A DNA stretch of 64,000 nt from Eledone cirrhosa (Eukaryota), in assembly GCA_964016885.1 (NCBI GenBank), contig OZ024743.1:336102001-336166000 (forward strand), in the 5' to 3' direction. The position numbers were made by a program, and so were the translations under genes. The notes beneath the pieces are model-generated. The model saw nothing but the letters and a program-made list of their open reading frames with translations, did no database searches and was not told the DNA's origin. Below are positions 3,527-63,746 of this stretch, one piece after another; the first letter of the stretch is position 1, and each line of letters opens with the position of its first letter.

Positions 3527-3774
<248 letters not shown>

Positions 3775-3819
3775 CGTAAAATAAGAAAATTATAAAATTA
3801 ACTTACTTACTAAAAAATC

Positions 3820-3903
3820 ACTTCCAACTAATTAGTTTCTGGAATGGAGTAAATATATTTTCCGAAAAAAACATATGGAAAATCATTCCGTCATCAGGAA
3901 AGT
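3820..3903 (-). ncRNA. Type I hammerhead ribozyme (second minus copy at 4345-4427)
   Basis: Reverse complement reads actttc-CTGATGA-c-ggaatg...cattcc-a-GAAA-ctaattag-TT-ggaagt. Confidence 0.85.
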
Positions 3904-4755
3904 CTTTTTCCGTATAGGTCTCCAGGCATAGCGAGGACACTGGAAACTTATTAAAAAAATAATTCAGTGGAATGGAAATAGCGATGCGTGGACTGGATTC
4001 CAAGCCATTGAGAAATCACTGCCTCTACGTCCGTGGCAAATTCAAAAAGAATCAATCACGTGACATCGAGGTCAATCAGAGGAAAGCGAGTGGTTATTAA
4101 GACAGCGGCTAGCTTACTACCATAGTAGCAGTCATGGCCAAATATTGCTCGACAAATGAATTGGAGATAATTATAAGGAATTTATATCTAGTAACATTTA
4201 TATACACACAGATGCATATCAATGCTAGCAAATATATAGGTTTTGTCTTATTAACAATGTGGTTCAATGCATGGGGTTGCAGAACAATAATATGAGAGAC
4301 GTAAAATAAGAAAATTATAAAATTAACTTACTTACTAAAAAATCACTTCCAACTAATTAGTTTCTGGAATGGAGTAAATATATTTTCCGAAAAAACATAT
4401 GGAAAATCATTCCGTCATCAGGAAAGTCTTTTTCCGTATAGGTCTCCAGGCATAGCGAGGACACTGGAAACTTATTAAAAAAATAATTCAGTGGAATGGA
4501 AATAGCGATGCGTGGACTGGATTCCAAGCCATTGAGAAAATCACTGCCTCTACGTCCGTGGCAAATTCAAAAAGAATCAAATCACGTGACATCGAGGTCA
4601 ATCAGTGGAAAGCGAGTGGTTATTAAGACGTAGAGGCAGTGATTTTCTCAATGGCTTGGAATCCAGTCCACGCATCGCTATTTCCATTCCACTGAATTAT
4701 TTTTTTAATAAGTTTCCAGTGTCCTCGCTATGCCTGGAGACCTATACGGAAAAAG

Positions 4756-4838
4756 ACTTTCCTGATGACGGAATGATTTTCCATATGTTTTTTCGGAAAA
4801 TATATTTACTCCATTCCAGAAACTAATTAGTTGGAAGT
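4756..4838 (+). ncRNA. Type I hammerhead ribozyme (second plus copy at 5281-5363)
   Basis: actttc-CTGATGA-cggaatg...cattcca-GAAA-ctaattag-TT-ggaagt; palindromic stem III; predicted GUU cleavage. Confidence 0.85.
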
Positions 4839-5569
4839 GATTTTTTAGTAAGTAAGTTAATTTTATAATTTTCTTATTTTACGTCTCTCATATTATTGTT
4901 CTGCAACCCCATGCAGCGAACCACATTGTTAATAAGACAAAACCTATATATTTGCTAGCATTGATATGCATCTGTGTGTATATAAATGTTACTAGGTATA
5001 AATTCCTTATAATTATCTCCAATTCATTTGTCGAGCTATATTTGGCCATGACTGCTACTATGGTAGTAAGCTAGCCGCTGTCTTAATAACCACTCGCTTT
5101 CCACTGATTGACCTCGATGTCACGTGATTGATTCTTTTTGAATTTGCCACGGACGTAGAGGCAGTGATTTTCTCAATGGCTTGGAATCCAGTCCACGCAT
5201 CGCTATTTCCATTCCACTGAATTATTTTTTTAATAAGTTTCCAGTGTCCTCGCTATGCCTGGAGACCTATACGGAAAAAGACTTTCCTGATGACGGAATG
5301 ATTTTCCATATGTTTTTTCGGAAAATATATTTACTCCATTCCAGAAACTAATTAGTTGGAAGTGATTTTTTAGTAAGTAAGTTAATTTTATAATTTTCTT
5401 ATTTTACGTCTCTCATATTATTGTTCTGCAACCCCATGCATTGAACCACATTGTTAATAAGACAAAACCTATATATTTTCTAGCATTGATATGCATCTGT
5501 GTGTATATAAATGTTACTAGATATAAATTCCTTATATATATATATATATATATATTTATATGTGGGGGG

Positions 5570-9399: not shown

Positions 9400-10980
9400 T
9401 GTTATTTGAATAAATATATATATATAAGGTAGAGAAAGAATAATAACAGGTAGACATCATAAAAAGGTAATTTATTCTGTGTGCTTATAAATGTTTCCAC
9501 GGTGGTTATACAGCCTAGTTATGCTATGTGCAAATGTATAACTATTTGCAAAACTCAATTATCAGATGCTGTGACCACTGTATCATCAGAGCAGAATGGT
9601 TAAAATGTACAATGTAAATACCCTTAAGTGAGGTCATTGGGGAAGATAGAGTAGAAAAAGAAGAGAGAAAAGAAGGGGAGAGGGAGAAAGAGATATGCAG
9701 AGGTTGTAGAAATGGGAGATGTCGTTTGTAGATATCTTAATCAAAATGTTGTAGTAGGGGTTTTATTATACTGGTTACTCATAAAGCGACAACCTTAAGC
9801 GATGCGTTGATAGTCACGGTTGGAATTATTTATTGCCACAGAGAGCAGGTTCATAGATGTGAGAGGGAAGGAGGTGGACCTAGGGTGAGAGAGATAGAGA
9901 GGGAGAGAGTGTGGAATGGATAGAGTGGGAGATATAGAGAAACAGACGAAAGCTATGGGGTGGGTGTACATTGGGTTCATAGTAGTAATCTGCGAATTGC
10001 ACTAAGTTTCCATTTATAGTGATAAGCAGGGCATTGTCTTGTAGTGTGGGGGTAGAGAAAGTGGTTAGCTAGAAAGCAATGTTATAGTTACAGGTTCGAA
10101 TGTTAAGTTATTTTATAGTGAGAGAATTTAGTTTTCAGTTTGTGGTTGCAGTATAATGATCGTTCGATTCTATCATTTAGTAATTTATTTTTGGATTTTA
10201 AGATGTAAAAGAGTTCAAGGTTACATAACCTACAGTACTTCAATCCACTCCGATATGCACTAGCGCTGGAAAGTATATCCCATTTCAAAGTGAACTGTTG
10301 GTTGCGTTCACAGAGTTGCCAGGTCTTGTTGGCGAGCGTGGTCACAAAACGGTGATTATGATGTTTAATTGAGAATCGATGACGGTACCAGCGAGATTTA
10401 AAGGAGGTAGTGGTAGACCCGATGTAATACCATTTCTAGTCGTTCGATTCAACAGTGCATTGGTAAACAATGTTTGACTTTAGGTATTTATTCTTCAATG
10501 GACATCTTTCAGGTAAGTGGCAGTTACAGTATACCATGGATAGGTTATGATAGCAATACAGGTGGGTTGTGTAATACCTGTCTCCCATTTAGTGGTTGGG
10601 AGGCCGATATTACATTATGCTCATCTGTTATTAAAATATTTTGTTTTATAGTGTTGTTTAATTGCTTTAAGTTAAGTTTCAAGGTTTGGTGCCGTGGAAT
10701 ATGATAGTTTAATAGTTTTAGAGTTCAGAATTTTACTGTATTTATGGGAACTAGGGAAATGTTTGTTGATTAACTTAAAGAATGAAAGAGATAGTTTTGT
10801 ACTAATCGAAGCATTAAAAATGGGATTAAACCAGATATACTTTCTACAACGTGATTTATTTGGTGATGATTTTGTGATGATTTCAGTACCCCGGTTACGT
10901 ATTCTTTGATTTCGTGTAGAGCTATGTGTGTTATGGAGATTCTTATCAATGTATTCTATTGTATCCCGGTGGTCGGCATT
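9400..10980 (-). mobile_element. PLE 3' fragment (GIY-YIG domain plus 3' region with HHR at 9482-9593)
   Basis: WYYIGSTTTSFKSR, LKWDIL, CRLCNLE, LLN motifs; tgct-CTGATGA...GAAA-cattta-TA-agca. Confidence 0.8.
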
Positions 10981-11050
10981 CCTTAATGCATTATTATAGT
11001 ATTCAGCATGTGTATATATATATATATATACATATACATGTATGTATGTA

Positions 11051-11085
<35 letters not shown>

Positions 11086-11089
<4 letters not shown>

Positions 11090-11503
11090 GTAGGAGGTGA
11101 GTTTTATTGTAGTACAATAAAGCAATGCAGATATCGGATAAGAAGCACTCTACAGTTTGTGGGACTGGAGTATGCATAATATAAGATCAAAAGATGGTTA
11201 AAGGAGTTCAATATATTTTATTATGCGCATTTCAAAAACAAACATCATCAAACAATAATATTTGTGTTTTCATCAGATAAAACAGGAGAACATGATATGA
11301 AGGCTAAAAAAACACTTGTTGATAGTGCAGTTGATATGTTGATTTAAAACTGCACTATCAACAAGTGTTTTTTTAGCCTTCATATCATGTTCTCCTGTTT
11401 TATCTGATGAAAACACAAATATTATTGTTTGATGATGTTTGTTTTTGAAATGCGCATAATAAAATATATTGAACTCCTTTAACCATCTTTTGATCTTATA
11501 TTA
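11086..11503. mobile_element. Fold-back HHR element (about 155-165-bp arms plus about 90-bp one-sided extension) in (TA)n
   Basis: Inverted arms around about 11335. HHR ttttat-CTGATGA-aaaca...tgtttt-t-GAAA-tgcgca-TA-ataaaa at 11398-11464 (+) and 11216-11282 (-). Same family as 29512-29937. Confidence 0.85.
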
Positions 11504-11639
11504 TATATATATATATAAATATATATATTTTTTAAAAAAATAAGACTTCAGTTGCATTTTCGATTTCATCTCTTTTTCATTATACTTTCACTCGTGTAGA
11601 ACACCTCGGTTATTTTTCATTTTGTAAAAAAAACCTCAC

Positions 11640-12134
<495 letters not shown>

Positions 12135-12338
12135 GTATTAAGGATACTATTTATGGTTATATATATACTAAAACCTTTTATAGTTATATATATTTTAAAC
12201 CCTAAACAGTGAAGGACAGTAATTTATTACTACCTTATTACCAGTAAGATAAATAGCTCAATGTAATAACATCCGTTGTTCTACAGAGCAGTTATATAGA
12301 AAGTACATGAATCAAAGTTCTGTTCAAATCATTTATTA

Positions 12339-12383: not shown

Positions 12384-13109
12384 AATTTTTCAATGATTGT
12401 TTACATACATGACCTCCTTTCCAACACAAGAGACATACAGAAACATATGTATATCTCGATGCACAGTGGGTTGACATCCATTATAATAGTTTAGCATGGC
12501 AATTTACATTCAAAGATTAAAATCATATTAAAAGAAAATTAAAATACAACATCGGCAGTTTACGAAGATAATGCAAGAGGATAGTTTGAAGTAGTTAGTG
12601 TATGCAATAGTTACACGTGGGGCATGCACGTGTGTCTTATTTATATAAGATTATAGTGCGGCAAGGTGTTATATGGAATACAAGCACTTTAAGCTGGTAA
12701 TCAAGAGTATGTGGGGGTTGTATTGGTAAAGTATTTTTTATGTATGAGATAGAAGCTTGTGTGCGGAGAAATATTAAAAGTGAGAAGCAAAATAATGTTA
12801 TGGTTTTCGTATACACCACCATTTTCACAATCTAGGAAACGTAATATATAGATTATATGTCCTTCACATAATCAACGATGATTCAGTATTGGATGCTTGA
12901 TGAATTAGGCTAGATTATTACAGATTGTTGTTCTTTAATTCAATTTTATAGAGCCGGTTGTTTTTGTTGCGAGAATTAACATCGTTTTATTTTCCGGAAG
13001 TGTGTGTGTTATTAAGGGGAGTTAATGCGTGAGGGGAGGTAACTAGCTGATTTCAATAACTAAATTTATTATCCCAATGTACATTAAATGGTGCCCCAAT
13101 TGAGTCTCT

Positions 13110-13194
<85 letters not shown>

Positions 13195-13203
13195 TAATAT
13201 ATA

Positions 13204-14235
13204 AGCAGTGGCACGCCGCCCAGGCTTTGCTCTTCCTCTCAACCACATCATCTTCCGTATTCCCAATCTTTGCTCCTAAATACAGGAAGTCTTCAACCAA
13301 TTCTAGCGGCTTCCCGCCTACATTAGTGATCCGCTCTGACTTCTCAACATTCTCTACCAGATATTTTGTTTTTGTCTCATTCATTCTCAGCCCCACACTC
13401 ATCGACACAGTCTCAACCTCCTGCATCAAATCCTCTGCCTCCTTCATTGTATTTGTCACCAAAACTATGTCGTCGGCAAATTCAGCATCCGATATATTTT
13501 TCGCCTTAACTCTCCTGCTCTGAGCCGGTGCTACAGTAAACCCAGAGTCCTGGTGTTTCTCCAGTGCAAGGCGCATACAACAGTCCACTACGATGATAAA
13601 AAGGTAGGGAGCCAATGTATCTCCCTGGAGCACTCCAGCCTGTATCTCAAAGAACTCTGTCATCCCATCAGGTGTAATGACTTGGGATTTGGTGTTGGTG
13701 TATAGCAGTGATATCAGGTCCACTATCTTCTTGGGGATTCCATAAGCCACAGCTTGAGATCGGTATGGAAGTCGGACCTTCGTAAAGACCTGAAAATCCT
13801 CCTCTTCATTGCTGTAGTGGAGTCTGTGCTGCTGTACGGGTCTGAGACTTGGACACTGACCAAGAAACTCACTCAGATGGTGGATGGGTGCTACACGAGA
13901 ATGCTGAGGATAGCTCTGAACATTATTCAGTATACACTGAGGATGAACAACTCAGAGTGTATGGGAGCCTCCCAAAGGTCAGCTCAAAAGTGACACAGAG
14001 GAGACTGAGGTTAGCTGGACATGCTCACCGACATCCAGAGTTGACATTGCACTCAGTGCTCCTGTGGGAGCTCCTACATGGACACACTGGAAGAGGAAGA
14101 CCAAGGTTAACGTATGTTGATGCCCTAAGTACAGACACTGGTCTGTTGGAGATGCAGGACATGGCAGCGATAATGAGGGACAGAGACCGCTGGAGAGAAC
14201 ACGTCCATGGATCTCTGGAATTTTACCCGTCCTAG
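13204..14235. mobile_element. RTE-clade LINE with 5' inversion (13204-13750 minus, 13748-14235 plus)
   Basis: GVLQGDTLAPYLF and FADD on minus; the continuation HSLRSVWK...EFYPS* on plus; TSD tatataagca; closely similar to 24414-25980. Confidence 0.92.
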
Positions 14236-14340
14236 ATATATATATAAGCAAAAGGGATATTCAATTTGTTGGTAATTCAACAAATATAAATGATTATAAC
14301 TGATTCAGAGCACTCGACAGTTTTCTGGAGTATAATATTC

Positions 14341-14681
14341 AATGATATTAAATAAATGGAAACTATATTTATAAAACCATATTTATTGTATTATATATAT
14401 TTCAAGGGCACCAAAACTTTTGTACGCTTTCATCAGATAAAATACAAAATTTGTTTTATAAATTTTGACATAACCAAGGAAAGATACCTTAACGCTTCAA
14501 GTTAACTATCCAAGGAAAACTTGAACCGTTAAGGTATATTTACTAGGTTATGTCAAAAGTTATAAAACACATTTTGTATTTTATCTGATGAAAGCGTACG
14601 AAAGTTTTGGTGCCCTTGAAATATATATAATAGAATAAATATGGTTTTATAAATATAGTTTCCATTTATTTAATATCATTG
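14341..14681. mobile_element. Fold-back HHR element, diverged arms
   Basis: Inverted arms around about 14510. HHR tattttat-CTGATGA-aagcgtac...gtgccctt-GAAA-tatata-TA-atagaata at 14577-14637 (+), mirrored at 14384-14444. Confidence 0.75.
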
Positions 14682-14867
14682 TATATATATATATATAATA
14701 TATATATATATTTATATATATATTTTAAGTGTCAGACTCTCTCGTTGATATTGATATCATTCAGAAACGCACGTGCTTATAACAAAGAAATACAATGTAG
14801 CTCAAACTTCTATTAAGTCGTATTGTACATCTTTATATGTTCCTTAGACGAGTTTCATATATGTATG

Positions 14868-24232: not shown

Positions 24233-25982
24233 ACTAGCTGAGGTACCCAGCTTCGCCAAGGTTAACAAATGATAAATGAAAACCGGCAGAAGAGAAAACG
24301 TCTTGTTTACAGTGTGTGAGTCTGTGTGTTTGTATTTTTGTGTGTATTTGTGTATATATATATATGTGTGTGAGTGTGAGTGTGTGTGTGTGTGTGTGTA
24401 TCTATCTATCTATCTAAGGCGGGTAAAATTCAAGAGATCCATGGACGAGTTCTCTCCAGCGGTCTCTGTCCCTCATTATCGCTGCCATATCCTGCATCTC
24501 CAACAGACCAGTGTCTGTCCTTAGGGCATCAACATATGTTAACCTTGGTCTTCCTCTTCTAGTGTGTCCATGTAGGGGCTCCCAAAGGAGCACTGAGTGC
24601 AATGTCAACTCTGGATGTCGGTGAGCATGTCCAGCCAACCTCAGTCTCCTCTGTGTCACTTTTGAGCTGACTTTTGGGATGCTCCCATACAGCTCTGAGT
24701 TTTTCATCCTCAGTGTATACTGATTAATGTTCAGAGCCATCCTCAGCATTCTCGTGTAGCACCCATCCACCATCTGAGTGAGTCTCTTGGTCAGTGTCCA
24801 AGTCTCAGACCCATACAGCAGCACAGACTCCACTACAGCAATGAAGAGGCGGATTTTCAGGTCTCCACGAAGGTCCGACTTCCACACCGATCTCAAGCTG
24901 TGACACGCCGCCCAGGCCTTGCTCTTCCTCTCAACCACATCATCCTCCGTATTCCCAATCTTTGCTCCCAAATACAGGAAGTCCTCAACCAATTCCAGCG
25001 GCTTCCCGCCCACATTAGTGATCCCCTCCGGCCTCTCAACATTCTCCACCAGATACCTCGTTTTAGTCTCACTCATTCTCAGCCCCACACTCATCGACAC
25101 AGTCTCAACCTCCCGCATCAAATCCTCTGCCTCCTTCACTGTATTTGTCACCAAAACTATATCGTCGGCAAATTCAGCATCCGATACCTTTTTCGCCCCA
25201 ACTCTCCTGCTCTGAGCCGGTGCTACAGTAAAGCCAGTGTCCTGGTGTTTCTCCAGTGCAAGGCGCATACAATAGTCCACTACGATGATAAAAAGGTAGG
25301 GAGCCAATGTATCTCCCTGGAGCACTCCAGCCAGTATCTCAAAGAACTCTGTCATCCCATCAGGTGTAATGACTTGGGCTTTGGTGTTGGTGTAGAGCAG
25401 TGATATCAGGTCCACTATCCTCTTGGGGATTCCATAAGCCTGCAAGATCTTCATCAGGCAGTAACGGTCCACAGAATCAAAGGCCTTCCTAAAGTCAATG
25501 AAAACCATGACCGCAGGAAGGCACTTTGCTCTAGCTCCCTCTAATATCCTCCTCAGTATCAGGATGTGACTGGTGGTTGATCTACCCTCTCTGAAGCCGT
25601 TCTGGTTGTCCCTGAGCTTCTTCTCCATCTCAGGCTGGATCCTGTTAAGAATCATCCTGTTGAGGGTCTTTGCCACAAGTGACGTCAGTGAGATCCCCCG
25701 GTAGTTGTTGGTGTTAGAGAGATCTCCCTTCTTTGGCACTGGGACGATGTTACTGATCCTCCACTGATTCGGGGCAACTCCTTTCTCAGTGCCCCGTTAT
25801 AGAACCCCAGGATGATATCATCAAAATCACACCTCTTCATCACCTCTGATGCCACTCCATCTTCTCCATGAGCCTTGTTGCCCTCCCTGATCTTCTTCTT
25901 GGCTCTCTGAAGCTCCTCTCTGGTGAAGGGCTCTGTCTCAACATCCAGTTCCTCAAACAGCCGCCTGATCTCCCCAGTGCTC

Positions 25983-28700: not shown

Positions 28701-29238
28701 TGAGACATATATATATAAACTGTACATATTATTTTAATATGAGTATTTTAAGAAAAACACGAAAAACAAAATTCTACAAAGGATATTACCTGAAATACAT
28801 GTTGATATATATACATTTTTACATAGAATAACAATTAAAAAATAACAACAATCATTATAACTACCATTAAACATTACTAAATAAATATATAAAATGATAA
28901 CTTTTCAATGCATCATTAATTAAGCTTCATGCAACAAAAACAGAGACAGGCGGCGGGAAAAATAATAATTTTGTTTGCCCTGTTCCTTGGATGCAGTTTA
29001 AAGATTTCTCTCAACTGTAGTAGTAATGTCATTAGAGCGAAATGCTTTGATTGGAATATTGATTATTCTTAGTTTTGGAATTTCTTCTGAAAATGAAACA
29101 CCCACTGATCTCCATGATGTGGTTTGTTGTTATTCAACATAGTTTTTGCCTTTGAAATTTACCGCACACCGCAGGATCTAAAACGTTAATAAGAATAACT
29201 GGATATATATATAGAGAGAGATACATACATACATGCAT

Positions 29239-29365
<127 letters not shown>

Positions 29366-29511
29366 TACGTGTTTAGATATATATATATATAATTATGTAT
29401 ACATGTTTATATATATATATAAATATGCATACATGTTTATATATATATATATATAAATATGTATACATATTTATATATAAACATGTATACATATTTATAT
29501 ATATATATATA

Positions 29512-29937
29512 TAATATAAGATCAAAAGATGGTTAAAGGAGTTCCATATATTTTATTATGCGCATTTCAAAAACAAACATCATCAAGCAATAATATTTGT
29601 GTTTTCATCAGATAAAACAGGAGAACATGATATGAAGGCTAAAAAAACACTTGTTGATAGTGCAGTTTTAAATCAACATATGTTGATTTAAAACTGCACT
29701 ATCAACAAGTGTTTTTTTAGCCTTCATATCATGTTCTCCTGTTTTATCTGATGAAAACACAAATATTATTGCTTGATGATGTTTGTTTTTGAAATGCGCA
29801 TAATAAAATATATGGAACTCCTTTAACCATCTTTTGATCTTATATTATGCATACTCCAGTCCCACAAACTGTAGAGTGCTTCTTATCCGATATCTGCATT
29901 GCTTTATTGTACTACAATAAAACTCACCTCCTACATT
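29512..29937. mobile_element. Perfect fold-back HHR element (centre 29679/29680), same family as 11086-11503 in opposite orientation
   Basis: Spacer-less palindrome with about 167-bp arms; HHRs at 29742-29808 (+) and 29551-29617 (-). Confidence 0.9.
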
Positions 29938-29969
29938 ATATATATATATATATATATATATGCATACGT

Positions 29970-30008
<39 letters not shown>

Positions 30009-31239
30009 TATATACGTGTTTAAATATATATATATAATATGCATAAATATATATGCATGAATCAATGCTAGCTAGATAGCTATATACATTAAACGGAAAC
30101 TGTCTATTTTTTCTAGATAACGAGATAGAATAGAGATAGAGAAAGAAAAAGAGAGAGCAAATTATTTAAAAGAAGTAATGACTCTCCAACCAATATATGT
30201 TAGAATATGTCAGAAAATAAACAACACAAAAATACAAGAGGAACAAATAATTTCCTCGTTAACTTTTGATGAGAATGCATTTTCCAAAGCATCAATGTAT
30301 TTCTTACATATTACAATACATGTTTAAAACACATTAAATACATGTGTTAAATAGATTTACGTAAACAACCCGTTAGTCACAGTTTCTATAAAGTAAGGAA
30401 GCGTGATGCTGCAAACAGGAAATTACACAAATATTCAAAATCAGTTTGAATGGTTACACTGTGTAGTCAAATGTCAAGAATGACATTTGCAGCAGTAACG
30501 ATTGATAGGATTTGGTATTTCATTTGCATTACCTTTCGAGCAGTATCATTTACCATCTTTAGTTGACACTCACAGACGTATGAACATCCGTGTATGTATG
30601 TGAGTGTATGTATGTGAGTGTGTGTAGAAATTTGTCTTTGTGTATGGTGTTTGTGTTTTAGTGTGTTTAACATCCGTCGATTCCGAAGACAATTGTTTCA
30701 GTTGTTCGAGCAACAGAACAGCCTGCTCATGAAATTAACACGTGCAAGTGGCTGAGCATTCCACAGACTCGGGCGCATGCTCCTAATGTAATTTTCAGAG
30801 ATATTCAGTGTGACACAGTGTGTGAGAGAATGCTAACCTTTTGAAATACAGAAACAGTCCATCCGACGGGCATCAAAACAACTTCTCTCTACTCAATTTC
30901 ATTCACAAGGCATGGTTTGAAACAATGCTATGGTAATTTACACACGAACAAGATGCCACGTTGGGGAATTGAAACCAGGACCAATTGGTAGTAAAGAGAA
31001 CTTCTTACCAATTCGGTCATGATGTGTCCACAATTAAACCTTAATATAAAGAAAACTATTGCTGGGGAGTAAGAAGGGCAGCCATTTAGAAAATAAGAGA
31101 AATCAATTTGTTCAAAATATACACTCAAGTTTGGGTTACGGTGTGCGGCTTAGTGGCGTTCTCTTCACGGTCATACGGTCGTAAGTTCGGTTCCAGGCGA
31201 CGCGTTGTGTCTTTAATCAAGACAATTCATTTAACATAC

Positions 31240-33410: not shown

Positions 33411-33413
<3 letters not shown>

Positions 33414-34424
33414 CTTTAAGTCGTTTGAAAGCCTCGAAAATGCAGATGGGTAAATCTCCGGGTAACAAGATCCGGTGGTGGAGAAAGAGATGTAAGTGGG
33501 TGTACGTTGAGATGCGTGGTGTGTATAAGACGTGTAGAGGAATGAAAGAAAGAACGTAAAGGAAAAAATTAAAATAACAACACGACTTCCTCGACTTCCG
33601 AATCAACATCACGGAACAGGGAGGGCTCCACTGCAACTTCTACCGAAAGGCAGCCTGCAGGGACCTGTTCTTCCACTACAAGTCCGCCCTCCCTAACAGT
33701 GCCAAAAGAGTATACATCACGAACAAGATCGCGCGAATCAAAAACAGATGCAGCGATCCCGCGAGTGGTGTCACTCATACCAAGCGATTCCTCGAGGTTC
33801 TGGAGACGAACGGGTACCCTACCTCGCTCACAGACAGAGGAGGAGACACCAGACACAAGAGACAGAGAGGCACCCAAGGCAAGTGCTTCCTTAAAATGCC
33901 ACACCTGGGCGAGAATACCACCAACGCTATCCGCAAGGCTATACAGAGGGGGGGGGCTCGACCTCCACCTGGCCCACTCGGGTCACTCCCTGCGAAGATG
34001 CTTCTCCAGGAAACTCGGGAAATCAACTGACGCGTGCTCCCTCAGAGACTGCCCGATGCGCCATGCGAACCGTTGCCTACGCACATACGTCGTGTATAAG
34101 ATAGAATGTAATAACTGCAACTAATACTATATAGGTAGCACAATCCGACCGTTGCACATCCGGATTAAGGAACACACTAAAACCAGGGCCTCGTCTTTCC
34201 GGAAACACATAGCCAAATGCGGAAACAAAGACGGAAGGCCCATTGTCACAATTCTAGCGACAGAAAGAAACGTCGGCACGTTACGTATCAAGTAAGCACT
34301 TTGGATCAAACGCCTAGGGCCACAATTAAACAACCGATCTGAGAGAAGCGATATGAGGTGGTTGGTTTACGTTAACAAACGATGCAGCACCACACGCGCA
34401 CACACACACAAGCGAGACAGCAAC

Positions 34425-34464
<40 letters not shown>

Positions 34465-35046
34465 AGTAGCACTCCACCATACGAACATACTACACTGCCA
34501 ATGCAGAGGAACAAAGCAACAACACACGCACACACACACACACACACAGTAACATTCAAAAAACAGGCAGAGAATGGACTGACAGCTAGCGCCACCCCAC
34601 TCCCACAATTGAAAGAACTACTTCGGCCGCTGACCTCTGCCTGACCGACCCCATTGCACGCGCACGCGCGCTCTGCTGAATACCTCAGATATTAAAAACA
34701 ACGAACAGCGGAGGACACGTTTCGCACCTTTCCGACAGACAACCTTTCCCCCACCCCGGAATAAAACCCCAGTTGATGGATGTGAATCCTAAATATAGAG
34801 GGACAATTAAATCACTCTCAAGGTAACTCTCTCTCGTGTTGTTATTTTTATGTTTATCCTTTACGCTCTTTCCTTCATTCCTCTACACGTCTTATACACG
34901 CCACATATCTCAACGTACACTTACATCTCTCTCTCCACCACCAGATCTTGTTACCTGGAGATTTACCCAATTGCATTGTCGAGGCTTCCAAACGACTTAA
35001 AGAAATTTACCTTATTATTCCAGAATGCTTCAAGCAAACTTCAATA

Positions 35047-35050
<4 letters not shown>
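33411..35050 (+). mobile_element. 5'-truncated PLE with inverted 3'-repeat copy at its 5' end
   Basis: FLDFRIN..FYRK (RT thumb); VVYKIECNNCN*YYIGSTIRPLHIRIKEH (GIY-YIG); 33411-33586 is the inverted copy of about 34833-35006. Confidence 0.85.
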
Positions 35051-35095
<45 letters not shown>

Positions 35096-35428: not shown

Positions 35429-35466
<38 letters not shown>

Positions 35467-35470
<4 letters not shown>

Positions 35471-36316
35471 TCATTTAATTTATTAATTTATTGATATTTT
35501 ATTTGAGTGACCCGAATCTTCCTGGTCGTTCTTTTGCGGTTGCACGGGTGATTTTAGGCATGATCTCTGTGTGTTGGTATTTTGACGATAGTTATAACTC
35601 TGGTTTATCCAAACTATTGAGCCCTCTGCCACACATGTCGGATATTGTTTATCGTGATTTCGTGGGCCGATATTCCGATTCTCGATCATTCTACTGTATT
35701 TAGCTCCAGTCTTTAGCTATTGACCAGTTAATTTTATTGATTTTTTTTGTTGATCTTATTGACTGATAAATAGCTCTTGTTTATTTTAACACGTCTGTTG
35801 AGCACTCTGATTCGATGTGTGATCCTTTGTATTTTTACATAAATTACACATCACCGAATTCTTTCGCTAATATAGGGGTTCCCTCCCTTGCTGAATACCA
35901 TGTGCGTTTTTGGCTGTGGGTCCCTCCGTATTTTTGAACTGAAACTCGTTGAAGAAGCTCTTCCTCGTTCGTCTCCTCACTAGAAGTCATATATATGTTT
36001 TATGTGGGCTGATAGTGATTTGATTGAGGAATTGCCGAAACCCCAAAAGCTAGAATTTAACATCCTTCTAGCGGGTCCGGGTGAGTTTTTTACATTCATT
36101 TAATTTATTAATTTATTGATATTTTATTTGAGTCACCCGAATCTTCCTGGTCGTTCTTTTTCGGCTGCACGGGTGATTTTAGGCATGATCTCTGTGTGTT
36201 GGTATTTTAACGATAGTTATAGCTCTGGTTTATCCAAACTATTGAGCCTTCTGCCACACATGTCGGATATTGTTTATCGTGATTTCGTGGGCCGATATTC
36301 CGATTCTCGATCATTC

Positions 36317-36320
<4 letters not shown>
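35467..36320. repeat. 625-bp unit plus about 230-bp partial second unit between (TA)n tracts
   Basis: Direct repeat 35468-35697 / 36093-36320. Confidence 0.85.
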
Positions 36321-36361
<41 letters not shown>

Positions 36362-36364
<3 letters not shown>

Positions 36365-37755
36365 AAGATGAATATAAAATGAAAGTGCTTTTTTTAAAAA
36401 AGGAATTTATTAGGTATTGACATATGTTTCTGTAACAGACGGAATACCTATGTATCGCTGCTTGCGTAATCATATAATGTTAGCATGTATTCGATAGCAA
36501 ATGTATAATCAGTTGTCACTTCTTCAGAGATATTGGATAAATTGGAAAAAATCAGAAAAATTGAAGTATTTATATTAGTTGTAATAAAGGAAGAAGAGAG
36601 GGGATAGTATATGACAGATGGCAATTCTATTTACTGGTAAACAAGTATATAAAGGGTTTCTAATGAGAATACAATGAGTATATGGTTTATTTTATCTAAA
36701 TAAGAATATTTGGGAGTGCCTATTTTAATCTATACTTGACCAAATGAACAATGGACAGGGCTGGTCGTTTGATGTAGTAGTATTAATTATAAAGTGTCAA
36801 TTAAGGAAGAGGGAGATTTTCACTGCTACTGAATAACAACAATGCTGGTAGCCTGCTGGTATATGCATTAGGGAATTGAATTAAGAAATCTCATTTTATC
36901 TGTAGCAGTTTATATTAAATGGTAAAGAATAGAAGAGTTGATAGAATTAAGACTAATAGAGAATGTTAATATGTATTTTGACAATCAAACGGAGATGGAG
37001 ACAGGCGTTCAATCCTGGTAGTGTTTGTAATATGAAAATGTAGATTTCAATCGATGGTTACAGTATAACGATCCCTCTATTCTGTTATTTAATAAAATAT
37101 TTTTGGATTTCATAATACAAAATAATTGCATATTACACAATTTACAAAATTCCTGTCCGTGGGATAATGGAGTGGCAGTCACTATTATATCCCATTTTAG
37201 GTTAAATTGTTGGTTATTTTCGCGCAACTGCCAAGCCTTGTCTGCGAGTGTTGTTACATAACGCTGGTTTTCATGTTTTATCGAGTAACGATGTCTATAA
37301 AGGCGAGATTTGAAGGAGGTGGCTGTAGACCCCACATAGTACCACTTCTGGCTATCCGATTCGATAGTACATTTGTATATGATGTTACGTTCAAGATACT
37401 GATTGTTCAACGGACACATTCCTGGTTGGACACAGTTACAGTTATAATTTTGCGTTGTTGTATTGGCGTGGATGGGTTGATGAGGTTGCTTAGGTAGGAC
37501 GGGATGTTGTTTGTTGTTTTGTGATGTTATAGCTGATGTTTTACGTGTATTGTTATGTGTTGGAAGGCGTTTATACAACCGTTTTGCGTTAAGCTTTTTT
37601 ATATGTTGTTCAATATTAGGGGCGGTTGAATATGAAAGTAGAATAGTGTTAGGGTTTAAGATTTTATTATATTTATGTGATGTTGGAAAGTGTTTTTAAC
37701 TAATCGAAAGAATTGTGAGGGTAGATTGGTTTTAATAGAGTTGTTATAGACCGGG
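36362..37755 (-). mobile_element. PLE 3' fragment: GIY-YIG ORF 37009-37578 plus HHR at 36414-36532
   Basis: CNCVQPGMCPL..NIIYKC..YYVGSTATSFKSR..CKLC; CTGAAGA-a-gtgaca...tgttac-a-GAAA-catatg-TC. Confidence 0.85.
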
Positions 37756-37779
37756 TTGTACCATATATATACTCTTTAC

Positions 37780-37925
<146 letters not shown>

Positions 37926-39143
37926 TTATATTATTGTTCTGCACCCTCCTGCATTGAACCACCTAGGTACTATGACATAACCTGTGTATTTGCTGGCATG
38001 GACGTGCATCTGTGCGCCTATGTTAGTTGATATATTAAATTATCTATATTTATCTCCAAATCACTGATTTGTCGAGCAAACCTGCCAAAACCACTTCTAA
38101 ATTTTTTTTGGGGTGTTAGTAGGCGTCAGTCATCTTACCATCCCATTCCTTCTAACTAGCCTCTGTGTCACGTGATTGATTCTTTAGAATCGGCCATTTG
38201 ACTAGAAGCAGTGAGAATTTCAGTACATAGAATCCAGTCCTCGCCAGCTGTTCTTTCTACCGAATTATTATTATTTTTATATGAGCCGCCAGTGTCCGCG
38301 CATTGCCTGGAGACTCAGCTGAGAATAGACTCCCTGATGACGCAATGAATTCTCGACAGTTGGATTACGTAACTGTCTTTATCCCATTGCAGAAACTAAT
38401 TAGTTGGAGTGAAAATTTAAGTAAGTAACTAAAAAAAAAAATTTTTTTAAGATCTTTTGAAAAATATTTTCTTATTTTACGTCTTTTATATTATTGTTCT
38501 GCACCCTCCTGCATTGAACCACCTAGGTACTATGACATAACCTGTGTATTTGCTGGCATGGACGTGCATCTGTGCGCCTATGTTAGTTGATATATTAAAT
38601 TATCTATATTTATCTCCAAATCACTGATTTGTCGAGCAAACCTGCCAAAACCACTTCTAAATTTTTTTTGGGGTGTTAGTAGGCGTCAGTCATCTTACCA
38701 TCCCATTCCTTCTAACTAGCCTCTGTGTCACGTGATTGATTCTTTAGAATCGGCCATTTGACTAGAAGCAGTGAGAATTTCAGTACATAGAATCCAGTCC
38801 TCGCCAGCTGTTCTTTCTACCGAATTATTATTATTTTTATATGAGCCGCCAGTGTCCGCGCATTGCCTGGAGACTCAGCTGAGAATAGACTCCCTGATGA
38901 CGCAATGAATTCTCGACAGTTGGATTACGTAACTGTCTTTATCTCATTGCAGAAACTAATTAGTTGGAGTGAAAATTTAAGTAAGTAAGAAAATGTTTTA
39001 AAAAATATTTTCTTATTTTACGTCTTTTATATTATTGTTCTGCACCCTCCTGCATTGAACCACCTAGGTACTATGACATAACCTGTGTATTTGCTGGCAT
39101 GGACGTGCATCTGTGCGCCTATGTTAGTTGATATATTAAATTA

Positions 39144-39150
<7 letters not shown>
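37926..39150 (+). mobile_element. ORF-less tandem HHR element: two 540-560-bp units plus about 120-bp tail, flanked by (TA)n; homologous to 3768-5533
   Basis: Unit start atattattgttctgcac at about 37929, 38488 and 39029. Confidence 0.88.
38329..38410 (+). ncRNA. Type I hammerhead ribozyme (second copy at 38889-38970)
   Basis: actcc-CTGATGA-c-gcaatg...cattgc-a-GAAA-ctaattag-TT-ggagt. Confidence 0.88.
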
Positions 39151-39185
<35 letters not shown>

Positions 39186-39188
<3 letters not shown>

Positions 39189-39390
39189 CGTTTCTGAATT
39201 TGTTTAGCAAGATTCTTTATCGGAAATCGTGTGTTGAAACCGATATTGTTATACTTTGGGAGGGTCATGTTGCCAATAAGAAACACACGCACCAGTTGCT
39301 TTCACTTCAATTTATTATAATAAATTGAAGTGAAAGCAACTGGTGCGTGTGTTTCTTATTGGCAACATGACCCTCCCAAAGTATAACAAT
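39186..39390. mobile_element. Minimal perfect fold-back of the 50-54 kb PLE 3' end
   Basis: Centre on atttattataataaat; about 60-bp one-sided extension. Confidence 0.88.
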
Positions 39391-39446
39391 ATATATATAT
39401 ATGAAACAAAAACAAAGAGCGCTTTCATCATCAATTAATCTTTATT

Positions 39447-39492
39447 TGCTGACAGTGTTTCGTCCTTGCATAATTGCAGGACTCATCAGGGC
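39447..39492 (-). ncRNA. Compact hammerhead ribozyme
   Basis: gcc-CTGATGA-gtcc-tgcaattatgcaa-ggac-GAAA-cactg-TC-agc (one stem I mismatch). Confidence 0.75.
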
Positions 39493-39755
39493 GATATAAA
39501 GAGGAATTAGATCAATAGTATAAACTCTACCGACCTATATCACAAGAACGATCCATATGTAGCAAAGAGGACTAAGAACAGTGGGGTGCTTGGACGACGC
39601 GTCACCTCTAGAAGCCGATACATATAAGACCAAAATCATTTACAATAATTAAAGATAAGGAAAAATAAAAGATAAGGAAATTAAAGATAAGAGATAAAAC
39701 GTAAAGGGCAGAGCCTAGAGGTAAGGATAAAATAAAGATAACAATAAAGTGTGTG

Positions 39756-40699: not shown

Positions 40700-44935
<4,236 letters not shown>

Positions 44936-45039
44936 TATAATAACTTGTGCGTTACACCTCTATTCTTTTAACTATATATATATATATATAATATGTATGC
45001 ATGTGTATATGTATGTATGTGTGTGTGTGTATGTCTGTG

Positions 45040-48899: not shown

Positions 48900-49540
48900 G
48901 TTGAAAATAAAATAAAAAAATTAAAAATTAAATTACAAAGAATCAGTCCGGAGCCTTGTAGTTATGCAATAGAGGTTTGGTGACGTGTGAACAACGTGTG
49001 AAAAATTCACTTCTCGTGTTTAGGCAATCACTATTGCATAATCTCTTTAGGATAGTTATTCGTTCGTCAATACATAAGGCACACGTCGAATTTCCCCTTG
49101 CATATGGCTTGAACTTAGTGATGGCTTTCCATTGAATGGAGTAGCCTATACTTGAGTCCTTGAGGGGCCATACGTGGCTCGCGAGTCTCGTGGATGAACG
49201 TCTGTCCGGGTATCTGAAGGTAGACTGGTGGTTCAGGAAACGCTCCTTGAATCGGCTCTCCGCCATGCCCACATAGGATTTGACCTCCTATGGTTCGTTT
49301 GGTTGGTTGGTTGGAAGTGACCACAGCTTCATAGATTACAGCTGGTGTGTTGCATTGCTGTTGAAGGGGACAAGTTTCAGGATTACTGCAAGAGCACCCT
49401 GGTGGGGTGTTGCTCCTAGGGCTGCTAGTGATGTGGGCCTTCATGTTCTTAGCACAGGAGTATCCTAGTTTAACTTTGTGTCGGTTAAAGATGGGCGGTA
49501 TTTATGACCTATAGGGAAGTGTCTATCTAAGAGGGCTAGA
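48900..49540 (-). mobile_element. PLE GIY-YIG fragment
   Basis: CSCSNPETCPLQQQC..AVIYEA; YVGMAESRFKERF..H; CALCIDE; LNTRSE. Confidence 0.85.
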
Positions 49541-50039: not shown

Positions 50040-50051
50040 GAGAGAGAGATA

Positions 50052-53000
50052 TTTCGTTTCTGGATTTGTTTAGCAAGATTCTTTATCTGAAAACGTGTGT
50101 TGAAACCGATATTGTTATACTTTGGGAGGGTCATGTTGCCAATAAGAAACACACGCACCAGTTGCTTTCACTTCAATTTATTATAATAAATTTATAAATT
50201 TCTGGTTGGTTGGTTGGTTCCACAACCAGATGATTGTTTATATATTGTCAAAGTTCTTTCGTCACACATTATGTGACCTCTTCAGTGACTGGGGATTCTT
50301 TTCTTTGTTTTTGTGCCTCTCCTTTGTTCTGTCCTACGCCATCTTGTTTTTGTGTGTGTGTGTTGTGTGCTTAGTTTGCGCATGTGTTACATCCGGGTGT
50401 CTGTGTGTGTTTATATTCGTTTATTTATTTGTTTATTTACATGTTACTGGTTGGTTGTTTGTTCTATATGCGTGTGTGTTTTCATTTTGTCCTTAATTGT
50501 AAGATGTGATGTTGCTGTTCCACTCATGTTTTCTATTTAATTTTGGTTGGAGTTCATTTATGTTTATTGCCTCTGTGATCTGTCTAAACATTGCGTCTTT
50601 TCTGTGTGTAGATTCTATTTTTATTTCTATGTTCTCTAATTTACCCTTATGTTCTATTTTAGCATGTTGGTAGAGTACAGATGATTCTTTACTATCTTGA
50701 AGGTCTCGCCAGTGTTCATATATCCGTTCCCCTATACTACGAGCTGTCTCACCTATGTACACTATATTGTTATCTCTACATTTTCCTTCAGTACATCTTA
50801 TGCTATATACCACATTTCTTGTTTTACAGTTAATATGAGGGCTTAATTTACAGATTATACATTTCTTCTCTATACAGGGAGGTCTTTGAAAAGGGTATGT
50901 ATTGCTAATAAGTCTTTTTATGGAGGTACCTGGTCTTTCTACTATCTTAACATTGAGTTTATATTTATCTAGGGCCCTTCTAAATTTGTAAGCTAATTCA
51001 CCTCTAGGGGTTGTATCGATGAACATTACACTCTGGTATTTATTGCTATCATACCATGAGTTTATTCTATTAGCCTTATTCCTAGTTCTTTCTATTCTAT
51101 TCCAAAAGTTGCTCCTATACAAGGGGCAGGTCCCATTTGTGTCGTTATTTACCATTTTTTTCCATTTGGTTCTGGCTCCTCTATATACTCTGATTTTATC
51201 TCTCTGATTGTAACCAGAGAACTGCATACGGTGGATGAAGTGTTGTATGTGTCTCTCTAGTTCATCGGAGTTGCACATGCGGGACACGTTTCTCATCACC
51301 CGTACCAAATCCGCAATCAGTATGTTGATTTTGGTATAGTCCGAAACAGCTGAGTTTCGGTGGATCAGGTATTTGGAAGTCATGGGTTTGTCATAATGGG
51401 AATGGAGGATTTGTTTTTTCTTATTGATGGTATCTAACCAGAGCTCTGTGTCTAGTGCAGGTAATCGATGGTTGGGGTATTTGCTTGGGTAGTCTATAGT
51501 GACTCTAATACTCTGTGGATGGAGTTAGTTATTTGCTGGATGCTTCCCATTGTGTTTTTCTCTAACTCCTGACTGTTCTCTAGTGGGGGTGTTTTAACTA
51601 CGATGTTTATATCATCAACGTAGCGGGAGTACATTATCAGGTTTAAGGGGTCTTCTAATTGTTCTTTAAGTTTAAGTCTACTGTCCCACCATACCATGAA
51701 TAGATTAGCTATGTCGCCTGCAATGCTAACACAAATGGCTGCTCCCTCCTCTTGGGCATATGTTTTTACGTTAAATTTGAACATATGTTCCATAAGGGTT
51801 AATTTTATGCAGGCCCCCACCGCATGTGCAATCATTTTCTTTACTTCATCGTGGTTTTCGGGGGTCCGTATGGCTCTGGTCCACCCGTTCCATCTATCTG
51901 TGTGGGTTTTCTTGGCCATTGAGGTAATGGTAGGTGGTCTGCCTCTTGCTGGTCTTGTAGGGCACAGGTTGCTAAAGCCATATGTATCTAGATAATTATT
52001 ACTATATGTAAGTTTAAGTAGGAGTCCCAGCTCACCGGTATCAATCCCACGGAATTCAACATTGCCCTCACTGATCATTTCTACGCATTTCTCCACAGCA
52101 AAATCCACGTCAATAGATGGATACAGGGACACAACATCCATACTACATATTATGCAGTTTGTTAGGTCCCTAGATCGGTTACTCTCGCCGATTCTGCTGA
52201 GGAGGTCCTCCGTGCTGTCACATACATCTGGGGACATTTCAATGATGGGGCGTATGATCAGGGAGAGGAAGTATGAAAGTCTGTAGTTACTAGCAATGTT
52301 AGCTCCACAGACTGCCCGTGTTGGTGGACCTGTGACAGGGTCACTGCTCGTTTTATGGTCTTTTCGAAGCCCATACAACGCTGACACGTCATTGTTCCAG
52401 GCCTGGAAGTTGTTGGTAGTTCTTTTGTTGGGCAGAATTATATTTGTCCACATCATCATATAGGCATTGAGGGCTTTTTCCCTATCCTCATGCTCTTGTG
52501 GTGTTACTACTCTTATGTTAGTGATGTGGGGTTGCATAGCCTGGATGTAGTTTCCGACATTCTGCCAGACCTGTCTGTTGGAAAGCATGCTGTCTCTCCA
52601 TTACGCGAGCGCTGCATGAGCTTACGCAAGCCATTAACAGATTTTTCTCCCAGTTGCTGGGCCTCCATTCTATTATGCTTCTTGCTATACTGTTCTATAA
52701 TATTTTTAAGTTTAGATCTAGCTATACTAAATTGTGCTTCTGTTTGTTCATCGACCTGCGATGGCAATTGCGTGCGTTTGTTAAAAGCTAAAGTCTTGGA
52801 CTCGTCGCAGGTCGAACGACTTATCGGAAGGATTATAAAACGTAGAGTTCCAGGCTGCTGCTTTATGTGTACTAGTGCTATTGTTATTGTTAGTTGTGTT
52901 GTTTCTATTTCTATTTCCAGCAACAGCCTCGTGGTTGTTTCTATGTCTCTCATTATTACTCCTGTCTCTTTCCTCTGGCTCATTGTTATTATCTACTCTA

Positions 53001-53935
53001 TTTTGTGTGTCTGTGTGTTCGTCCTGATTATTTTCTCTGTCCATAGTCTCCCTTCTCCTTTGAATCCTATTACCTTCCCTTATTTCTGTGCTACTGTCAT
53101 TAACTGTTTTCTGTGTCTGTGTGTTTGTTAAGATTGTGGTGGTGGTGAGAGGCATTGAATGTGTATGTGTTGTTGTTGTTGTTGTTGTTGATGTGTGTTG
53201 TTATTGATGTGTGTTGTTGTTGTTGTTGTCTCCGTGTATGTTATTATTGTTGTTTGTGTCTGCGTGTCTGTTGTTGTTGTTTCTGAGTATGTTATTATTG
53301 TTGATGTGTGTGTTGTTGTTATTGTTGTTTGTGTCTGTGTGTCTGTTTTTGTTGGGATGTGTGTTGTATATGTGTGTGCGTATGTTGTTACTTTTGTTTT
53401 TGTTTTTGAGGCTCCAACGTAATATTGTAAATGATTTTTCTATTTCTGACAAACATTTAATCATATTTACCTTATTAAATGTGGCATACTTAGGTGGCAG
53501 TTGTAATACTGATAATTCATCAGAGTCGACCGTAGTGTTGCCGTATATATTTGTGTTGTTGTTGTTGAATTCATCTGTTAATGAGATGTCGGCCATATTT
53601 ATACCTTCAAAACGAATATAAACACACACAGACACCCTGATGTAACACATGCGCAAACTAAGCACACAACACACACACAAAAACAAGATGGCGTAGGACA
53701 GAACAAAGGAGAGGCACAAAAACAAAGAAAAGAATCCCCAGTCACTGAAGAGGTCACATAATGTGTGACGAAAGAACTTTGACAATATATAAACAATCAT
53801 CTGGTTGTGGAACCAACCAACCAACCAGAAATTTATAAATTCCTAAATTTATAAATTTATTATAATAAATTGAAGTGAAAGCAACTGGTGCATGTGTTTC
53901 TTATTGGCAACATGACCCTCCCAAAGTATAACAAT
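50052..53935 (-). mobile_element. Naiad-like PLE, frameshifted, with inverted 3'-repeat copy (53610-53935) at its 5' end
   Basis: LYGLRKDHK, SMDVVSLYPSI, IANLFMVWWD, RYVDD, DKPMTSK, MQFSGY, NVVYSIRC..YIGETARSIGER..EH across ORFs 51494-52588 and 50493-51383. Confidence 0.9.
50247..50289 (-). ncRNA. Minimal hammerhead ribozyme in PLE terminal repeat (mirror copy at 53741-53783, +)
   Basis: gtca-CTGAAGA-g-gtcaca..tgtgac-GAAA-gaac-TT-tgac. Confidence 0.8.
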
Positions 53936-53951
53936 ATATATATATATATAT

Positions 53952-56877: not shown

Positions 56878-58455
<1,578 letters not shown>

Positions 58456-59277: not shown

Positions 59278-63746
<4,469 letters not shown>

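Follow-up and report, generated by a model that had tools for sequence, protein, structure and literature searches.

Introduction

Insertions of Penelope-like elements (PLEs) have been described as carrying an inverted copy together with a tail at one end, and these tails are 30–40 bp long (Arkhipova et al. 2013, PMC3846280; Craig et al. 2021, PMC8557442). In vitro, both strands of AT-rich DNA are cut and extended by a Poseidon protein for which a dimer is predicted, and the tail was explained as the interval between two internal reverse-transcription start sites; according to the accessible text of that study, insertion was unaffected by ribozyme mutants (Frangieh et al. 2024, PMC11167929). 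Hammerhead repeats also occur in tandem, as the so-called non-LTR retrozymes (Cervera and de la Pena 2020, PMC7229834), and these have been linked to PLEs by co-occurrence and similarity (Li, Clavereau and Pollet, bioRxiv 10.64898/2026.07.22.740005). Minimal hammerhead families with compensatory changes have also been reported (Cervera and de la Pena 2014, PMC4209133). How tandem, inverted and tailed PLE insertions arise, which RNA feature fixes the start sites and what role the hammerhead plays are named as open questions in the available parts of two of these papers (PMC8557442, PMC11167929).

The locus described here lies in a window, by which we mean the whole stretch of 64,000 nucleotides that was analysed (Eledone cirrhosa, assembly GCA_964016885.1, contig OZ024743.1, positions 336,102,001 to 336,166,000 of the forward strand). 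It holds a non-coding hammerhead tandem in (TA)n, which is likely a non-autonomous Penelope-like retroelement (an animal retrozyme) copied by the RT-endonuclease of a partner that is autonomous and probably belongs to the Hydra clade. A literature search on cephalopods returned nothing on this repeat family.

Results

The tandem element and its repeat family

The element at 37928-39150 (plus strand) consists of 560 + 541 + 122 nt and is flanked on both sides by (TA)n, with the left target run at 37763..37927 and the right one at 39151..39186 (no strand is assigned to either run). Unit 1 (37928..38487, 560 nt) has its 5' boundary at a site that we call S1. Unit 2 (38488..39028, 541 nt) is 19 nt shorter in an A/T tract, and the tail of 122 nt (39029..39150) runs from S1 to a second site, S2, whose fixed 3' end is at 39150, the last bases being ambiguous with TA. 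The first-pass annotation had described a 560-bp tandem unit; the tandem is there, but only unit 1 has that length. No ORF of at least 150 aa was found over the element and, therefore, it lacks the RT plus GIY-YIG ORF of an autonomous PLE. Besides the ribozyme core, further boxes such as TGTCACGTGA are conserved, and this box (38166..38175 and 38726-38735, plus strand) is a possible internal promoter element. A hairpin upstream of it (37966-38110 region; unit positions 150-190) folds in both families of the window from different sequence, and none of its pairs had three compensatory branches. A splice-donor-like GTAAGT was seen 3' of the ribozyme, with no conserved acceptor apparent.

A sister family with units of 525 nt forms a head-to-head insertion at 3768-5536, in which the inverted arm (3768..4629, minus strand) has its 3' end at S1 and the direct arm (4627..5536, plus strand) has its 3' end at S2. 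The two families are about 70-77% alike (69-75% by blastn, 72% between family medoids and 77% over aligned columns), which bears out the earlier alignment of the unit with a diverged 525-nt family. It was also correct that the two elements stop at positions that align with each other, 122 nt beyond the start of the next unit. The further claim that the element starts at atattattgttctg (37928), where the inverted arm at 3768 stops, describes two boundaries that are both present, but it sets a 5' end against a 3' end.

In the host genome of 3.0 Gb, a pattern made of the core and the palindrome had 8,596 matches, with 0 for the reversed control. Two non-overlapping variants of the ribozyme pattern add 1,573 and 344 copies, so the family has more than 10,000 ribozyme copies. 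At least 12 subfamilies are present, since 216 distinct ribozyme stretches from 157 fetched regions fell into 12 clusters of at least three members at 93% identity and 8 singletons, and a relaxed ribozyme pattern gave one additional non-coding subfamily. Full units cluster at about 522-530 and 543-556 nt, and the 84 full units of the window subfamily measure 516-581 nt. The median total insertion length is about 800 nt, and 27 of 79 position-ordered insertions have at least two same-strand ribozymes. With non-coding tandem units, one hammerhead in each and no LTR, the family has the make-up of a non-LTR retrozyme. A 2.55-kb repeat at C4:38.10 Mb, considered as a long form, was rejected because it arose from a single insertion within another element that was duplicated locally.

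Two fixed 3' ends and unlike pairs of arms

Ends were tabulated with two overlapping profiles in 176 regions, and 178 of 187 insertions were kept after one that was cut by a locus edge and eight local duplicates had been dropped. The 3' ends of 282 arms fell at S1 (124), at S2 (128) or elsewhere (30), and this pattern was seen in every stem II class. S1 corresponds to unit positions 0-7 and S2 to about position 122, so that the sites are 122 nt apart; each carries ATA(T) and lies 3' of a predicted hairpin. Nearly all S1 or S2 ends (248/252) abut (TA)n. Genome-wide, 4,615 3' ends at S1 were counted (pattern control 12) along with 5,386 read-throughs of S1.

The 5' ends, by contrast, are spread over the whole unit. 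Only 6 of 272 lie within 8 nt of S1, where about 8 would be expected if they were uniform, and the genome has 12 matches in which the start of the unit directly adjoins a clean TA run; a 5' end fixed at S1 was rejected on both counts. Since 5' ends are scattered and starts at S1 rare, the start of the window copy at S1 is likely a chance 5' truncation at TA microhomology. The ribozyme cleavage site does not set the ends either. None of the 282 3' ends lies within 10 nt of it, and 5' ends fall on it (464-468) in 2 of 282 arms, with a broad rise just upstream of S1 and no sharp peak. Past the cleavage site extend 111 of 128 S2 arms, a proportion biased by the choice of loci for whole ribozymes. 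Because the ends avoid the cleavage site and S2 arms pass it, a cleaved linear monomer is unlikely as the main template. The earlier view that the termini are fixed and do not coincide with the cleavage site thus stands for the 3' ends but not for the scattered 5' ends. Randomly distributed termini had been named as the outcome that would speak against it, and 252 of the 282 tabulated arms end at just two sites.

How the two sites combine was seen in 104 two-armed insertions, of which 81 were S1+S2, none S1+S1, none S2+S2, and 23 had an arm that ended elsewhere, mostly against non-TA sequence. Three like pairs (two S1+S1 and one S2+S2) had appeared in a census that split arms at the model junction, and they were gone with two overlapping models. 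TA was found at both outer ends in 80 of the 81 S1+S2 pairs, and a target-site duplication is unreadable since both flanks are (TA)n. The 74 single arms were divided between S1 (36) and S2 (34), although about six of these had a short partner arm that the profile had missed, mostly of the opposite class. A position-ordered sample of 79 insertions (C1 below 56.6 Mb) contained 38 S1+S2, 18 S2 and 15 S1 insertions and 8 with an odd end. As loci were mostly chosen for a whole ribozyme, arm lengths are biased upward and some very short arms were missed. Arms of the same insertion differed by a median of 1.1% compared to 2.6% between insertions, with the lower value within the insertion in 49 of 56 cases, which shows at the sequence level that both arms of an insertion share a lineage.

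The family has the structure of a PLE, with 5' truncation, an inverted head-to-head copy and a tail at one end. By analogy with described PLEs, the two fixed ends are the Penelope-like 'tail' signature, carried here by a non-coding tandem retrozyme. The first-pass annotation had overlooked this signature, and also that the arms of a head-to-head insertion come from different sites. Two fixed ends 122 nt apart likely mean that a Penelope-type enzyme copies from two start sites at once, and we regard Penelope-type mobilisation of the unit family as very likely. Under this model, arrays would be transcribed into RNA of more than unit length. The partner protein would nick both strands of a (TA)n run and prime one cDNA at S1 and one at S2, each priming site lying a few bases 3' of a hairpin, with 3-4 nt (ATA/ATAT) matching the target. 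Both cDNAs would stop at variable points and be joined head to head, mostly via microhomology of a few bases, and the failure of one cDNA would leave a single arm such as the window copy.

The copied RNA

The copied template is likely an uncleaved multimer or a circle. Within the two-start-site model, a circular monomer copied by rolling circle is a possible alternative to a read-through multimer, though we lean somewhat toward the multimer. Units within an arm differ by a median of 0.8% compared to 2.2% between insertions (lower in 40/47), as would be expected from a circle, but a homogenised source array would give an equally low distance within insertions. One arm has about 35 units (19.2 kb; C1:301308221-301327581) and clean S1 and S2 ends. 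Its length would suit rolling-circle copying, yet three non-CpG variants recur in 9, 6 and 4 of its units, which is not expected from one circle. Monomers fold better than shuffles (z -3.2 and -3.9), and retrozyme circles have been documented in other animals (PMC7229834). On the other side, a second long array of the window subfamily, about 50 kb at C2:312.60-312.65 Mb, carries one core mutation in at least 16 units. The spread of this mutation through the array indicates that long arrays also grow locally.

A candidate partner

The left neighbour of the element, at 36362..37695 on the minus strand, is a separate, 5'-truncated PLE with an endonuclease end, a 3' UTR, a hammerhead and an S1 end. 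Its family has 8 uninterrupted 781-aa ORFs in 6 loci, with RWK, DKT, a CxCX5C linker, CxxC and CxH around E and N, and a C-terminal endonuclease, in agreement with the definition of the Hydra clade as far as it is given in the available text (PMC8557442). On this motif definition, rather than on a tree, the family is assigned to the Hydra clade, and we take it to represent the likely class of partner. Its tandem copies are 3,115 nt apart, its tails measure 105-119 nt (about 110; 16 ends), and its hammerhead has an extra base on both sides of stem II, a palindromic helix III and about 60 nt to S1. The ORF-bearing PLEs of this genome share the two-end layout, with tails of about 41, 60, 65 and 110 nt, and tails in other two-ended families of the fetched loci are about 30-170 nt long.

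A second feature concerns the stretch just after S1. The element has a hairpin with a 2-nt 3' bulge, GUUC-UG..CA-UU-GAAC, 8 nt after S1 (39037..39060 in the tail, 37936-37959 and 38496-38519 in the units, plus strand), which is a candidate recognition signal. In several sequence-unrelated families, a hairpin follows S1 at a distance of 5-12 nt; it is built of a 4-bp base and an upper stem, has a 2-nt 3' bulge, and its base changes between families, e.g. GUUC/GAAC to GCUC/GAGC. With one scoring rule, whose rates are flattering since it was tuned by eye on the same tails after these had been seen, the hairpin was found in 10 of 11 hand-picked tails and in 0.2-2.2% of shuffles. It was present in 4 of 4 scored Hydra-linked tails (those downstream of endonuclease ORFs), one of which had been found via the motif, versus 0 of 3 Neptune- or Poseidon-like tails. 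It was part of the minimum-energy fold in 6 of 10 other families and not in that of the best-documented Hydra family. In a fifth Hydra family, 0 of 29 ends had the motif; the six of them that were inspected reach no further than the likely S1.

A search of 70 GIY-YIG loci, 66 Hydra loci and 176 regions, a minor share of the first-look candidates, which number more than 50,000, turned up no ORF-bearing element with homology to the unit, and thus the partner is inferred from layout only. Shared non-TA flanks, taken as a possible trace of a partner, were short inverted arms or other elements. Unit matches in loci L310 and L330 lie near GIY-YIG ORFs, the one in L330 being a separate insertion beyond a long TA run. 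Single-protein searches for a partner returned only their own families, and the contigs of four runs contained nothing on a partner; two runs labelled as other organisms had a few contigs at low depth.

The layout makes the Hydra clade the better candidate for the partner of the unit family, and we think it probable, if by a modest degree. A partner of the Neptune or Poseidon type is unlikely. Elements of these types are common in this genome and likewise have (TA)n targets and two ends, and the failure to find a homologous partner applies to any clade; however, their tails of 41-65 nt are without the bulged hairpin, whereas ribozyme layout and tail length of the unit match the Hydra family. 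A broader proposal, which we put forward tentatively and as nearly an even call, is that Hydra-type proteins use the bulged hairpin after S1 as the RNA signal for choosing their template and placing the two primings on it, and that a guild of sequence-unrelated hammerhead repeats keeps only this signal, the ribozyme and a long structured tail in order to hitchhike. If this were true, each head-to-head insertion would be a record of one protein dimer copying one RNA lineage from two programmed internal starts.

Other elements were observed in the window and in the fetched loci. The family of the left neighbour also occurs at L405-L410, with many uninterrupted 781-aa frames, and at least four more Hydra-type families were seen in the loci and in the window (10112-10528, 48955-49275, 60645-61959). 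Further two-ended families that are unrelated in sequence were observed at L208, L212, L236, L323, L332, L339 and L200. Their tails measure 80-166 nt, S1 is followed by the same bulged hairpin, and some of them are tandem; the same class is found in the window at 12298 (minus) and 36203 (plus). The L323 family appears to be tied to a Hydra ORF in L112, but other sequence lies between the two and no connection is claimed. A Neptune-like element at 40739-44975 has an RT (41368-43332), a frameshifted endonuclease, a head-to-head arrangement in (TA)n and a tail of about 41 nt; a pattern search found no hammerhead core in its terminal repeat. A Penelope/Poseidon-like element at 50049-53937 carries a minimal hammerhead, and its tail measures about 60 nt; a 200-nt head-to-head end stub of it, with the tail on one arm and none on the other, lies directly to the right of the window element (39187-39392). 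A 5'-truncated PLE that has an inverted arm and whose tail is about 45 nt long is located at 33411-35051, and a compact hammerhead motif of another family (CTGATGA, 6-bp stem II, GAAAC) at 39440-39500 (minus). Other elements are tandem (619 and 625 nt) or palindromic (56879-58341, 35466-36327, 11012-11848 with 29200-30015, and 14331-14691), and several of them have CTGATGA..GAAA motifs. LINE-type reverse transcriptase fragments were seen at 24414-25796 and 13043-13951 (minus).

The hammerhead motif

Each unit contains a type I hammerhead motif, with a CUGANGA core, GAAA and an NUH triplet in order and stem I open. In copy 1 (38329..38410, plus strand), stem I is formed by 38329-33 and 38406-10, the core CTGATGA is at 38334-40, and stem II pairs 38342-47 with 38385-90 and carries a distal hairpin, with an extra C at 38341 opposite an extra A at 38391. 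On the 3' side are GAAA (38392-95) and a palindrome (38394-38405), with cleavage predicted after GUU at 38405. For copy 2 (38889..38970, plus strand), cleavage is predicted after 38965. The order along the unit is ACUCC, CUGAUGA, the extra C, stem II as GCAAUG/CAUUGC, the extra A, GAAA, the palindrome, GUU and GGAGU. Small dimeric hammerhead variants are the subject of Lunse et al. 2017, and the extra bases at stem II may be among the features reported there. Rfam at the gathering threshold had 0 matches in the window, its hammerhead model included, and the long stem II insert and the extra bases may explain the miss. Copies 1 and 2 are predicted to co-fold via the palindrome and a swapped stem I into a double-hammerhead topology; the palindromic helix III duplex of the predicted fold has -9.0 kcal/mol and would allow a dimer.

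The first-pass annotation had deduced selection on ribozyme function from the two families of the window. Stem II is GGAATG/CATTCC in the 525-nt family and GCAATG/CATTGC in the window element, stem I is ACTTTC/GGAAGT and ACTCC/GGAGT, respectively, and the CTGATGA/GAAA core and the 12-nt palindrome AACTAATTAGTT are identical in both. These changes and identities are present as it described; one of six stem II pairs differs, and stem I shows a 1-bp indel on both sides and a U.G to C-G change. Taken alone, these differences would be weak evidence for covariation. Selection on the ribozyme fold is supported by the comparison of many subfamilies rather than of the two window families. Across 216 sequences, stem II pair 2 was C-G in 112, A-U in 42, G-C in 31 and U-A in 26, with 5 mismatched, and these four Watson-Crick forms go along with three two-sided changes on the tree, which upholds the claim of selection as far as the fold is concerned. 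Pair 5 was U-A in 152 and G-C in 59 and is mismatched in some multi-copy subfamilies. In 16 natural copies, 99.3% of 141 cells in stems I and II were paired, compared to 37-61% for slid controls, and two-sided changes occurred in 2 of 9 stem pairs. Stem I varied on one side only, plus the indel.

A G-test that takes the tree into account, with parsimony-shuffled nulls (216 sequences, 9,870 pairs, 40 nulls), ranked a pair in the distal stem II hairpin first (E 0.025), the one pair at E<0.05 among all pairs. Stem II pair 2 came second (E 0.175) and pair 5 fifth (E 8.6). A near-whole-unit test for compensatory branches, run on 48 sequences thinned from 110 and 496 columns, found two pairs that were at least 90% paired with three such branches, namely stem II pair 2 and one pair of the long tail hairpin (39086..39135, plus strand), which ends shortly 5' of S2; no pair of this kind arose in 30 of 30 null runs. 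The 9 pairs with at least two compensatory branches were not above the null (mean 3.9, maximum 10).

The pattern behind the 8,596 matches fixes the core by construction and, therefore, core changes were counted separately, at the three positions A6, N7 and G8. N7 is the free position of the hammerhead core. It was changed in 1,573 copies, nearly all of them CUGACGA among the first 100 matches listed, versus 186 copies for A6 and 96 for G8 (the latter counted among copies with U at N7 only). The copies changed at A6 and G8 are spread over subfamilies in a decay-like manner.

Another possible explanation for this conservation is that the fold serves to bind a protein or has a structural role, and that it cleaves hardly, if ever. 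The U of the GUU triplet can pair with A14 within the 12-nt palindrome, in the lowest-energy fold of the monomer the core is paired with the palindrome, and ends are not piled up at the cleavage site. In other systems, ribozyme mutants of a Poseidon element were unaffected in insertion in vitro (PMC11167929), and 8 of 9 Xenopus retrozymes were uncleaved in vitro, according to the available text (bioRxiv 10.64898/2026.07.22.740005). On the other hand, the only one of the three core positions at which a change has spread as a subfamily is the free one, N7, and the palindrome, on which cleavage as a dimer would depend, is identical in 12 of 12 multi-copy clusters, though it was required by the search pattern. 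We consider little cleavage rather improbable and favor a ribozyme that likely cleaves as a dimer via the palindrome, would act upstream, in monomer release or circularisation, and does not set the ends.

Joining of the two arms

The S1 arm had the longer 5' reach in 48 of the 81 unlike pairs and the S2 arm in 28, and junctions overlapped by at least 1 nt in 24 of 32. In 21 of 81 pairs, no more than 25 nt in unit phase separated the 5' ends of the two arms, compared to a permutation mean of 9.3. This excess could be taken to mean that head-to-head insertions form by fold-back (self-priming) of a single cDNA, as has been proposed for rotifer elements (PMC3846280), but it also fits two cDNAs annealing at self-complementary stretches. 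A fold-back copy cannot exceed its template or add a tail and, since either arm can be longer, neither arm is a fold-back copy of the other. The arm lengths show that fold-back is excluded for most insertions; it could have a minority role, and as the general route it is highly unlikely. Spread as a satellite by DNA-level recombination, with ends set by TA microhomology, would suit the local amplification of some long arrays and the ATA in both end sites but has next to no probability, being largely refuted by the end census with its thousands of dispersed short insertions of strict polarity, its two ends only, despite further TA-rich sites in the unit, and its 81 unlike pairs out of 81.

Comparison with known systems

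The unit family provides a genomic count for the two-start-site model, with 81 of 81 pairs unlike, and it is a retrozyme in which the Penelope insertion signature is complete although no homology to a partner could be detected. Its ribozyme is conserved although the ends are not set by it. A non-coding substrate of 550 nt, a candidate hairpin and an intact candidate protein in one genome make the mechanism testable in the published assay.

Like the animal non-LTR retrozymes, as described in the accessible text of Cervera and de la Pena (2020, PMC7229834) and of Li, Clavereau and Pollet (bioRxiv 10.64898/2026.07.22.740005), the family consists of tandem units that are non-coding, low in GC and equipped with a single type I hammerhead, ranges from monomers to long arrays, has thousands of copies and belongs with elements proposed to be non-autonomous PLEs. 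The unit is 520-560 nt here, compared to 170-400 nt in the 2020 paper and up to 972 in the preprint. The link to PLEs was made there through co-occurrence and similarity, whereas here it comes from the insertion signature, with no sequence similarity found. For the window family, circular RNA and cleavage are putative.

With PLE insertions that have an inverted pLTR and a tail, the family shares 5' truncation, partial tandems, a truncated inverted head-to-head copy, a tail at one end, microsatellite targets and ends that are not those of the ribozyme (Arkhipova et al. 2013, PMC3846280; Craig et al. 2021, PMC8557442; Frangieh et al. 2024, PMC11167929). It differs from them, as far as they are described in the available sections, in having no ORF and a tail of 122 nt instead of 30-40 bp, with two conserved hairpins, one of which covaries. 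The Poseidon start site was reported to be non-homologous to the cut DNA, whereas both start sites here match the target over 3-4 nt. The Hydra clade has (TA)n targets and hammerheads as well (PMC8557442). The Hydra family at 36362-37695 also resembles the unit in how its ribozyme is laid out and how far this lies from S1, and it has a tail of 110 nt and a bulged hairpin that can be drawn; the unit differs from the Hydra elements examined in having neither an ORF nor detectable sequence homology.

The ribozyme resembles the minimal dimeric hammerheads of PLEs in its short stem I, long G-C-closed stem II, extra base after A9 and palindromic helix III, and also in the many families per genome and the compensatory changes (Cervera and de la Pena 2014, PMC4209133). 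Compared to the accessible description of these, it has a second extra base (A) before GAAA and a GUU triplet, and its distal stem II hairpin is often capped by C(UUCG)G. In the literature that was covered, mostly papers outside subscription, no report was found of a count of unlike arm pairs, a structured tail of 120 nt or a hairpin shared among Hydra-linked tails. The non-autonomous PLE retrozyme is a known kind of element, set apart here by the longer structured tail, the unusually clean record of priming at two sites and the candidate recognition hairpin.
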